Positions 26,088-27,068 of a stretch of DNA of 64,000 nucleotides are shown piece after piece. Under the pieces are notes generated by a model. That model did not search any database. It was not told the DNA's origin and saw nothing but the letters and a program-made list of their open reading frames with translations. The number at the start of each line of letters is the position of its first letter. The first letter of the stretch is position 1. The position numbers and the translations under genes were made by a program. Origin of the DNA: Escherichia phage KookSpook; the sequence record PP925842.1. The stretch is one strand, 5' to 3'.

Positions 26088-26250
26088 TCTAGAAAATATG
26101 CTTATAGAGCAATGGAACTCTGGATATAATGCTGGAGTATCTGCTTGTATTGCTGGATTAGACATGCTTATTAAACAAGAAAGGGTACGTCCTGAAGAAG
26201 CAATTTTACTCCGAGATATTATCGAGGGATTTAAGCGGGGGGTAGTATAA
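26056..26250 (+). CDS. hypothetical protein
   Basis: 64-aa ORF. Confidence 0.4.
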   Translation: MDFLNQNLKSNLENMLIEQWNSGYNAGVSACIAGLDMLIKQERVRPEEAILLRDIIEGFKRGVV

Positions 26251-27068
26251 TGCGTAGGCTAATTATTATTAGTGGTGCAGGTTTAAGTGTTGAAAGCGGC
26301 GTACGCGCATTTCGTACTGACTCCAGTACTGGTAAAGCGATGTGGGACGAGTTTAATATTGAAGAAGTATGCAATATTCATACCTTTTTAGGAGATTGCT
26401 ACCACAAAACTCATGAGTTCTATAATAAACGCCGTGAAGAACTAGAAACTGTTGAACCTAATCTTGCCCACCTTCGTATTGGTGAGTGGTATAAACGGTA
26501 TCCAAATCAAGTAGTAAACCTTACTACCAACGTTGATGACCTTATTGAGCGTGCTGGCGTTCCACATAGTGACATTCTGCACATTCATGGATATTTAAAA
26601 GAGGTTGTTGTAGCTGATAGCTACAATAGTAGCAATAAACGGATTATTAATGTAGGGTACAATTCTATTGACCCAGATGATTATAAATGGGTTAAACCTA
26701 ATGTAATCTTCTTTGGGGAGCATGCTCCAGCATATGCAGAAATGTACAATGTTTTTGATGGTATTACCAATCAAGATATGATCATTGTGGTTGGTTGCTC
26801 TAACCAAGTAATTAACTTCTATTGGGAATTATTTCCTGTTCTTAATTTGACTGCTGCCAAATTAATGGTAGTTAACTACTATGATAGTGCCCTAGCGGCA
26901 GAGCCAGGCTATCAAGGTATGACTCGTAGTGAGATGTACCAGTTGGAAGAACGTGGTGTCCCTTACTGGAGTAAAGGTGCGGTGGATGCTTTCAGTGACC
27001 CTGATTTTATTGCTCGTGTGGAAGCTCATTTAGAGGATAGACCTTATGTGCCAGGAAGCAATAAATAA
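26250..27068 (+). CDS. Sir2-family (sirtuin-like) NAD-binding protein, no zinc ribbon
   Basis: ISGAGLSVESGVRAFR (GAGIS.ESG..FR), TTNVDDL, HIHGY (catalytic His), IVVGCS; no CxxC pairs. Confidence 0.7.
   Translation: MRRLIIISGAGLSVESGVRAFRTDSSTGKAMWDEFNIEEVCNIHTFLGDCYHKTHEFYNKRREELETVEPNLAHLRIGEWYKRYPNQVVNLTTNVDDLIERAGVPHSDILHIHGYLKEVVVADSYNSSNKRIINVGYNSIDPDDYKWVKPNVIFFGEHAPAYAEMYNVFDGITNQDMIIVVGCSNQVINFYWELFPVLNLTAAKLMVVNYYDSALAAEPGYQGMTRSEMYQLEERGVPYWSKGAVDAFSDPDFIARVEAHLEDRPYVPGSNK

Follow-up and report, generated by a model that had tools for sequence, protein, structure and literature searches.

Within a 64,000-nucleotide stretch of the genome of Escherichia phage KookSpook (sequence record PP925842.1; hereinafter, the window), the plus-strand gene at positions 26250 to 27068 encodes a sirtuin (Sir2-family protein) of the CobB/SIRT5 type, that is, class III, that has lost the zinc-binding cysteines. 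The interpretation that we tentatively favor is that this protein is a zinc-independent deacylase of class III descent that depends on nicotinamide adenine dinucleotide (NAD) and prefers acidic acyl groups. The existence of the protein is not new: the sirtuin gene of phage T5 has been annotated since 2004-2005, the zinc-less domain was described in 2016, and the neighborhood that combines a HAD phosphatase with RNA repair genes was described in 2022. The carriers of this gene include several model phages, namely, T5, the rV5-like and KVP40-like phages and many BASEL phages.

Sequence, structure and classification of the phage sirtuin

The gene is an exact ATG-to-stop open reading frame (ORF) of 272 amino acids that matches the full length of the Pfam SIR2 profile (PF02146; positions 1-178 out of 180, E = 1.2e-24, score 87.7 bits with a cutoff of 24) and PHROG 2162, 'Sir2' (E = 8e-119). 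The ratio of nonsynonymous to synonymous substitution rates (dN/dS) relative to the T5-type alleles is 0.11-0.14, which is indicative of purifying selection and, therefore, of a real gene. In the sequence TAATG, the start codon shares nucleotides with the stop codon of an upstream ORF of 64 amino acids, so the sirtuin gene lies inside an operon. The features of the gene and its product, all on the plus strand, are the following.

26250..27068, +: sirtuin gene, 272 amino acids, ortholog of T5.102 (ORF, Pfam, PHROG, synteny, dN/dS)
26274..26315, +: NAD-binding motif GAGLSVESGVRAFR, residues 9-22, aligned to GAGISAESGIRTFR of CobB
26370..26372, +: Cys41, in the position of CobB Ala76 and of what we take to be its SIRT5 equivalent, Ala86, a small residue that lines the acyl pocket
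26418..26435, +: residues 57-62 (FYNKRR), with Y58 and R61 of the class III Tyr-x-x-Arg signature for anion binding, aligned to FYNARR of CobB
26523..26543, +: TTNVDDL, residues 92-98, with the catalytic Asn94 and Asp96 and with Thr93 in place of the usual Gln of TQN(I/V)D (from conservation)
26586..26591, +: catalytic His113-Gly114, invariant, aligned to HG of CobB
26592..26705, +: beta-module of the small domain, residues 115-152, in place of the Cys4 zinc ribbon (from the structural model and the alignment)
26709..26720, +: FFGE, residues 154-157, the substrate/NAD 'FGE loop', aligned to VVWFGE of CobB
26892..27065, +: clade-specific C-terminal helical extension, residues ~215-272, beyond the ends of the Pfam and NCBIfam matches

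The preliminary description of this locus, made from the DNA sequence alone, had recognized the sirtuin NAD-binding motifs, and all of them, GAGLSVESGVRAFR, TTNVDDL and HG, are indeed present. It had also considered that the catalytic residues might prove to be misaligned in a profile alignment; they are not, inasmuch as N94, D96 and H113 align with their CobB counterparts and are invariant among 61 aligned homologues with identities down to 48%. In the same set, the NAD-binding residues G9, A10, G11, S13, S16, G17, F21 and R22 are invariant, as are F57, Y58, R61 and R62 of the class III signature and T93 and V95 flanking the catalytic asparagine. The same holds for K149, P150, V152 (V187 in CobB), F154, F155 and E157 of the FGE loop, which takes the form KPNVxFFGE. 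The predicted helices of the C-terminal extension (226-234, 244-248 and 251-261) are accompanied by the conserved residues G236, A244, F248, I254 and E258. The columns of the specificity pocket are anchored by variants of CobB in the PDB alignments: the column of C41, a residue kept in all 61 sequences, is fixed by the comparison of wild-type CobB with the A76G variant, and the Y92A variant (6rxs) has alanine in the Y58 column, so that, in the profile alignment, Y58 corresponds to Y92 and R61 to R95. Thus, the class III triad, C41 in the A76 column, Y58 and R61, is invariant. These are the positions that let SIRT5 and CobB take negatively charged acyl groups.

Structural evidence points in the same direction. 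In a sequence search of the PDB, E. coli CobB was the top match (E = 1.4e-17 for the single sequence and 2.3e-30 for the clade profile), followed by Sir2-Af1, Sir2-Af2, SIRT5 and Sir2Tm. The AlphaFold (AF2) model built from the 61 homologues has a predicted local distance difference test score (pLDDT) of 90.4 and a predicted template modeling score (pTM) of 0.88, small domain included. It displays the two-domain sirtuin fold, with a Rossmann domain and a small helical/beta domain, and its top 50 Foldseek matches are all CobB, Af1, SIRT5, Sir2Tm or SIRT2. Structural comparison gave figures of 21.3 for Af1, 19.5 for PfSir2A and about 17.6 for SIRT1, SIRT2, Hst2 and SIRT4, with SirTM at 14.8 and SIRT6 at 14.0; among the defense proteins, the figures were 13.7 for PsSIR2, 12.3 and 11.5 for Sir2-HerA, 12.1 for ThsA and 9.6 for Avs5. 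Hence the defense Sir2 domains are not the closest structural neighbors of the window protein.

The proposal, made in the preliminary description, that this protein resembles the NAD-consuming Sir2 domains of defense systems more than it does CobB is refuted by these observations: the PDB and Foldseek rankings, the structural comparison and the profile alignment all side with CobB. A PADLOC scan of the window sirtuin yielded no families at E <= 1, and no defense partner or fusion (SLOG, HerA, pAgo/APAZ, STAND or the DSR C-terminal domain) was detected, the protein being a single domain of 272 amino acids with small ORFs, HAD_SAK_2 and DUF7415 for neighbors. The PADLOC result, the CobB-first rankings and the class III triad together led us to reject the reading of the protein as a defense-like Sir2. 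What the protein shares with ThsA, DSR1/2, Sir2-HerA, SPARSA and Avs5 is the Rossmann core common to the Sir2 superfamily and the lack of a zinc ribbon. To the class III sirtuins, E. coli CobB, Archaeoglobus fulgidus Sir2-Af1, Plasmodium falciparum Sir2A and human SIRT5, it shows 23-26% identity, and it differs from them in the absence of the Cys4 site, the Thr in place of the Gln of TQN(I/V)D and some 55 extra, helical amino acids at the C-terminus.

Loss of the zinc ligands and the coupled Gln-to-Thr replacement

Sirtuins carry a CxxC...CxxC zinc site between the HG motif and the FGE loop. The window sirtuin contains three cysteines (C41, C50 and C183), none of which lies in the spacer of approximately 40 residues between HG and FGE, and the Cys4 set is found in none of the 61 homologues, so the preliminary description was right to note that the zinc module is missing. 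The recurrent cysteines among the homologues are C41 (61 of 61), C183 (55) and C148 (23). The spacer has about the same length as in CobB (~40 amino acids), and in the AF2 model it forms three strands (114-122, 131-134 and 147-152) with pLDDT of 92-97. The small domain therefore seems to survive without metal ligands; judging by the model, the domain is retained and the zinc ligands alone are lost.

The residue that precedes the catalytic asparagine is Thr in all 61 clade members. We searched 1.84 billion cluster representatives exhaustively with a profile and retrieved 7,234 relatives, 157 of them below 1e-30. Among the best 150, which are the nearest representatives of clusters at 50% identity, Thr goes with the absence of the zinc site in 32 cases against 5, and Gln goes with the Cys4 site in 57 against 9 (Fisher p = 1.8e-13, uncorrected for phylogeny); the FYxxRR signature is retained in both groups. 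By this sequence comparison, the loss of zinc is a trait of the entire phage clade, coupled with the replacement of Gln by Thr in the TQNID motif. In the literature on these phage sirtuins, we found no mention of this coupling. The zinc-less small domain itself was reported in 2016 for the sirtuins of KVP40, phiSt2 and phiGrn1, with the T5 homologue named in the same work (PMC5107563).

A replacement in a position that contacts NAD could be a mark of a mono-ADP-ribosyltransferase, SirTM-like or SIRT6-like, that would act on protein or DNA and modify host factors early in infection. Sirtuin chemistry permits ADP-ribosyl transfer, and 'ADP-ribosylase' is already among the possibilities given in the T5 record. 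The defining trait of the SirTM systems, however, is a partner Macro domain, and there is none among the nine ORFs that flank the sirtuin in the window or in the Pfam-annotated loci of the other lineages. Given that the class III deacylase signature is retained as well, we consider such an activity very improbable.

A predicted deacylase mechanism

Our preference for a deacylase that acts on acidic acyl groups stems from the protein itself: its fold and catalytic residues, the class III triad and an acyl-lysine tunnel that has not changed. At such a level of homology, with the specificity residues conserved, inferences of function are usually right. The invariance of the catalytic, NAD-binding and class III positions across the homologues argues for this activity. 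In the predicted reaction, NAD+ would be bound in the Rossmann cleft (GAGxS...FR, N94 and D96), with the acyl-lysine inserted into a tunnel made up of the FFGE loop and residues F21, V95 and V152. The pocket of C41, Y58 and R61 is expected to favor negatively charged acyl groups, such as succinyl or malonyl, and may admit acetyl as well. Nicotinamide would be expelled, and H113 would promote the attack by the 2'-OH of the ribose, so that free lysine, nicotinamide and O-acyl-ADP-ribose are released. The beta-module, a mix of hydrophobic and polar residues, may serve as a structural brace in lieu of the zinc ribbon. Conceivably, neighboring phosphoesterases (HAD_SAK in the window, cREC or Nudix elsewhere) clear the nucleotide product, and NAD salvage genes that adjoin the sirtuin in other phage lineages replace the NAD+ consumed. 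Should this interpretation be correct, it would provide a direct case of viral resetting of protein acylation, in bacterial or viral targets. Skliros et al. previously proposed, without an assay, that the KVP40-type sirtuin deacetylates acetyl-CoA synthetase, and this proposal supports the deacylase interpretation (PMC5107563).

The sirtuin locus in the window

In a megablast search, the region matched 446 phage records, with about 87% identity to T5, SP15, FFH1 and many Salmonella and Escherichia phages of the genera Tequintavirus and Epseptimavirus; SP15 is 87% identical to the window in nucleotide sequence over the queried 3.5-kb stretch, 25000-28500. The T5.102 protein (YP_006930), annotated variously as 'Sir2-like', 'cobB' and 'putative transferase', is an ortholog with 88% amino acid identity and conserved synteny; T5.102 and the Demerecviridae orthologs occupy the same position in the early region, in the same gene order, and the differences are allelic alone. 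As in T5, the order of genes is nrdD, small ORFs, Sir2, two ORFs of PHROG 5116, HAD, two DUF7415 genes and the gene for the origin-binding protein; the operon that includes the sirtuin gene begins downstream of nrdD. The block between nrdD and the latter gene consists of small ORFs that are variably present among T5-like phages, so the label of accessory cluster given to it in the preliminary description is fair. The neighbors of the sirtuin gene are listed below.

26056..26250, +: ORF of 64 amino acids, PHROG 5827; its stop codon and the sirtuin start codon overlap (ORF list)
27046..27404, +: two tandem paralogous small ORFs of 61 and 71 amino acids, PHROG 5116, between the sirtuin and the HAD gene (ORF list)
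27391..27897, +: HAD_SAK_2 phosphatase, 168 amino acids, DIDGVLN motif, ortholog of T5.105 (Pfam PF18143, E = 2.2e-20)
27900..28733, +: two tandem DUF7415 paralogs of 142 and 132 amino acids that close the operon (Pfam PF24187, E = 8e-31 and 1e-26)

The HAD_SAK_2 gene starts 323 nucleotides downstream of the sirtuin gene. This gene is flanked on either side by a tandem pair of paralogs (PHROG 5116 and DUF7415); the two DUF7415 proteins, both acidic (isoelectric point, pI, 4.0-4.6), are 31% identical to each other, and DUF7415 persists in Sugarland-like phages that have no HAD. A scan for promoters and terminators between 22.8 and 29.4 kb gave counts not above those in shuffled sequence, except for a perfect consensus promoter upstream of nrdD, and is therefore uninformative. 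Farther away, approximately 9 kb downstream, the T5 annotation places a split NAD-dependent DNA ligase (T5.116/117).

Several annotations in this region call for correction. The HAD_SAK_2 gene (27391-27897) carries the label 'Sir2 (NAD-dependent deacetylase)' in the RefSeq entry for T5 and in numerous other records, an annotation error that has spread. Its source is PHROG 18062, a profile of 92 positions that matches residues 77-168 of the HAD protein (E = 8e-54) and, weakly, residues 169-216 of Sir2, and that evidently derives from remnants of Sir2-HAD deletion fusions such as the 90-amino-acid 'sir2 (defective)' ORF of phage DT57C. A PDB sequence search with the HAD protein gave no meaningful match. 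The label 'nicotinamide mononucleotide transporter' in phage PSa2 (3807-4001 of locus L002) is spurious: it belongs to the 64-amino-acid ORF upstream of the sirtuin, whose size makes such a function implausible, and it is backed by no family match. The nearest record to the window, MG065692, 'Campylobacter phage C13', shows 97% nucleotide identity to 25167-28500 and is one of 25 'Campylobacter' records that carry the sirtuin (among them MG065652 and MG065677) in genomes of T5-like or rV5-like enterobacterial phages; probably, either the host attribution is wrong or the phage preparations were contaminated.

The window also contains 19 tRNA genes. ARAGORN predicts a tRNA-Ser with the unusual anticodon ACT on the minus strand (10336-10409), beside a tRNA-Arg(TCT); by comparison of coordinates, this is the T5 region annotated as the stable 'RNAX' of unknown function.

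Sirtuin neighborhoods in other phages

By tblastn, 991 (~2%) of the 50,697 phage records searched carry the sirtuin, and these are distributed among T5-like phages, Vequintavirus, Phapecoctavirus, Mydovirus, Schizotequatrovirus and jumbo phages. Outside the T5-like group, the company it keeps changes. Vequintavirus Bas49 has divergent Metallophos and AAA_33 kinase genes, then RNA_lig_T4_1, cREC_REC, Sir2, a gene for a 237-amino-acid protein and, farther away, an ATP-dependent DNA ligase; in Vequintavirus, the RNA ligase and cREC are directly upstream of Sir2 on the same strand. In 12-14 Mydo- and pEa-type IMG/VR loci, Sir2 has Metallophos, RNA_lig_T4_1, cREC and AAA_33 kinase genes on its own strand, no more than 3.4 kb away. 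The jumbo phage Muenster has the run NMNAT/Nudix, phosphoribosyltransferase (PRTase), Sir2, Nudt16-like Nudix and cREC. In Erwinia phage pEa_SNUABM_55 (locus L075), an operon of ligase, kinase, Sir2 and DNA ligase is located back to back with NAPRTase and a gene resembling phosphoribosyl pyrophosphate (PRPP) synthetase, a pair that represents the enzymes of the NARP1 pathway of NAD reconstitution. The presence of NAD reconstitution genes next to the sirtuin in Muenster and pEa_SNUABM_55 is as expected of a deacylase, a stoichiometric NAD consumer, and would suit any enzyme with a cost of one NAD+ per turnover.

In Phapecoctavirus, none of these neighbors is adjacent to Sir2, the RNA ligase being 29 kb away, and an Acb2/Tad1-like gene and a DUF7275/7277 gene are found upstream of Sir2. 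Both Phapecoctavirus and a KVP40-like Vibrio phage encode a DUF7277/DUF7275 protein on the sirtuin strand, 2-3 kb upstream of the sirtuin gene (ECO340P2, L074, 4806-5747; Vibrio phage VH7D, L005, 2098-2859; tuntematon, L004, 1799-2740). The KVP40-type sirtuins belong to the same phage clade and are 37-41% identical to the window protein. Their setting in the KVP40-like Vibrio phages, such as phiSt2 and phiGrn1 (PMC5107563), which are T4-like phages with NAD salvage in which Sir2 lies beside a topoisomerase gene, is unlike that in the window.

Deacylation or RNA repair

In 2022, Iyer, Burroughs, Anantharaman and Aravind recognized a distinct clade of phage sirtuins, for which they proposed, on computational grounds, a KptA-like role in RNA repair; the type 3 neighborhood of their classification, of which SP15 is the prototype, pairs the sirtuin with a standalone HAD phosphatase of the 'Swiss-army-knife' type (PMC9503650). 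All three neighborhood types were reproduced here, and the window sirtuin is a member of this clade, in an exact type 3 neighborhood and without structural difference. Under the hypothesis of these authors, the sirtuin would function as an RNA 2'-phosphotransferase analogous to KptA/Tpt1 that transfers ADP-ribose from NAD+ to a 2'- or other terminal phosphate of RNA cut by host anticodon nucleases. An attack by the ribose 2''-OH would then yield ADP-ribose 1'',2''-cyclic phosphate, with the adjacent cREC, 2H, HAD or Nudix proteins either preparing the RNA end or degrading the cyclic phosphate. KptA/Tpt1 has an ADP-ribosyltransferase (ART) fold, not a Rossmann fold, and no homology with sirtuins, so that any likeness would be functional only, involving a possibly analogous two-step NAD-dependent reaction and a similar company of RNA-end enzymes (PMC9503650).

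The chemistry would parallel deacylation, with an oxygen nucleophile at C1'' and then the 2''-OH, and Y58 and R61 could hold a phosphate instead of a carboxylate. In 31 of 35 T5-type IMG/VR loci, HAD_SAK_2 is encoded 0.65-1.1 kb downstream of Sir2 (midpoint to midpoint) on the same strand (DUF7415 in 34), and the association survives rearrangement in Erwinia phage KEY, where the order is HAD, a 118-amino-acid ORF, Sir2, a 57-amino-acid ORF and a terminator, without nrdD but with Sir2 and HAD still in one operon. HAD_SAK_2 is thus the most persistent partner of the sirtuin among T5-like phages. This link is mostly lineage synteny because HAD homologues are nearly restricted to T5-like phages (477 records). 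Three observations reach further: the operon of KEY, the joint deletions of Sir2 and HAD and the replacement of the Sir2 allele. The RNA ligase operons of the Mydo-/pEa-type and Vequintavirus loci and the Sir2-Nudix-cREC order in Muenster add to the case for RNA, and so does the distribution of cREC, which is found in 9 of 13 Sir2-positive ligase operons and in both jumbo-phage loci as opposed to none of three Sir2-less operons; hence Sir2 with a phosphoesterase behaves like an add-on module. The functions of cREC and HAD_SAK are themselves computational predictions (PMC7824862).

The Sir2-less operons speak against the RNA hypothesis. The Bas49-type RNA ligase is found in 705 phage records. 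In Pseudomonas phages phiPsa374 and JG004 (loci L076 and L077), the Metallophos/ligase/kinase operon contains no Sir2, KptA or cREC and runs into a PRPP-synthetase-like gene and a nicotinamide PRTase; in Aeromonas phage phiA009, it continues directly into a DNA ligase gene. In none of these three is the Sir2 slot occupied by KptA; it contains either NARP1-type genes or nothing. The repair cassette can therefore do without the sirtuin, and there is no sign of displacement by KptA. A NARP1-type pair adjoins the RNA repair operon in the unrelated phages phiPsa374, JG004 and pEa_SNUABM_55, so RNA repair and NAD reconstitution cluster even without a sirtuin. Conversely, in the 64-kb window, tblastn with the Bas49 RNA ligase, cREC, kinase, Metallophos and 237-amino-acid proteins found nothing at E <= 0.3, and the T5 annotation between 9 and 95 kb includes no RNA ligase, polynucleotide kinase, KptA or NAD salvage gene, the split NAD-dependent DNA ligase being the only relevant entry. 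Because repair operons work without the sirtuin or KptA, and T5 and the window have the sirtuin without an RNA ligase, polynucleotide kinase or cREC, the RNA repair context of the sirtuin is not obligatory; the 29-kb distance in Phapecoctavirus is a further point against the hypothesis. Moreover, the neighborhoods also hold NARP-type and Acb2/Tad1-type counter-defense genes, so that the clustering may merely reflect a 'counter-defense island'.

Features of the protein also count against the RNA hypothesis: the tunnel for acyl-lysine is unchanged, as are the FGE loop and the class III residues, and nothing hints at a wider cleft. Tpt1 proteins are basic, unlike the phage sirtuins, which are acidic across the clade (median pI 5.2, net charge -12); the genuine RNA repair proteins of Bas49 are acidic too, so charge is weak evidence on RNA binding. 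To our knowledge, action on RNA has not been demonstrated for any sirtuin. On balance, a KptA-like role is a less probable but serious rival to deacylation. The same caution applies to the broader notion that the phage sirtuin is the first that acts on RNA, using NAD+ to remove or ADP-ribosylate a terminal or 2'-phosphate of tRNA cut by host anticodon nucleases, as part of a portable two-gene module with a phosphoesterase (HAD_SAK in T5-like phages, cREC or a Nudt16-like Nudix in others); if so, the loss of zinc and the Gln-to-Thr replacement would be marks of a change of substrate. With such an analog of KptA, the chemistry of sirtuins would come to include RNA, and the repair of tRNA by phages in response to anticodon nucleases would gain a new step.

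Several observations weigh against the deacylase interpretation. Two near-universal features of proven deacylases, the Cys4 site and the Gln of TQN(I/V)D, are both lost, and the losses are fixed in the clade, as would be expected of a shift in function. CobB-type models are the only ones in NCBIfam that match, and they do so far below their cutoffs (100.2 bits against 243, 88 against 320 and 78 against 318). Although the sirtuins of the different lineages share just 33-60% identity, they recur beside phosphoesterases of RNA ends or cyclic phosphates (HAD_SAK, cREC, Nudt16-like Nudix), and an RNA ligase/kinase/Metallophos operon is adjacent as well. The Macro domain is the usual handler of O-acyl-ADP-ribose, and its absence from the flanking ORFs and the other-lineage loci is unfavorable to deacylation and compatible with an RNA substrate. 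Taken together, the context, the two fixed losses and the missing Macro domain favor a shifted substrate. No target protein can be named, and the literature that we found holds no enzymatic or genetic work on the sirtuins of T5 or other members of the phage clade. The adjacent phosphoesterases and Nudix proteins could equally clear O-acyl-ADP-ribose products, as would suit the deacylase that we tentatively favor.

Dispensability and allele exchange

Two T5-like phages have lost the Sir2-HAD module. In Bas34 (SelmaRatti), residues 1-103 of Sir2 are fused to residues 117-168 of HAD (3501-3950 of locus L080), and in DT57C, Sir2 residues ~171-212 are fused to HAD residues 128-168 (3354-3626 of locus L079). 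The two deletions are independent and in frame, both destroy the two catalytic centers, and the phages are viable; therefore, the module is dispensable on laboratory hosts and is lost as a unit. This double co-deletion is in line with the RNA hypothesis, and Bas34 and DT57C provide ready-made natural deletion mutants of Sir2 and HAD.

The Sir2 gene also stands out in a comparison of the window with the Epseptimavirus polluks, a Salmonella phage (locus L073). Most of the flanking genes are 86-97% identical (NrdD 97%, HAD 87%, origin-binding protein 96%), with lower values for the first DUF7415 protein (72%), orf79 (60%) and the small ORF that follows Sir2 (57%), whereas the Sir2 proteins share 50.5%. 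Thus, deeply diverged Sir2 alleles share the same slot in near-identical backbones, and these identities indicate that the allele was swapped between close relatives.

Such swaps are frequent among genes involved in host-phage conflict and would suit an NAD+ glycohydrolase, or another enzyme with NAD-derived small molecules as substrates, acting on the NAD pool or on immune signaling molecules; such a role would turn around the defense-like reading of the preliminary description. The lack of a zinc module, as in the defense Sir2 NADases, the co-location with NAD reconstitution genes and the Acb2/Tad1-like sponge gene in Phapecoctavirus fit this scheme. However, the full acyl-lysine binding apparatus, which is absent from NADase Sir2s, is kept in the phage protein, and destruction of NAD would harm a phage that needs NAD+ for its split DNA ligase (T5.116/117), so we regard this activity as improbable. 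As for exchange over greater distances, in a neighbor-joining tree of Sir2, constructed without support values, the T5-type and RNA-ligase-type contexts are intermixed, a hint that suggests transfer of the sirtuin gene between phage families.

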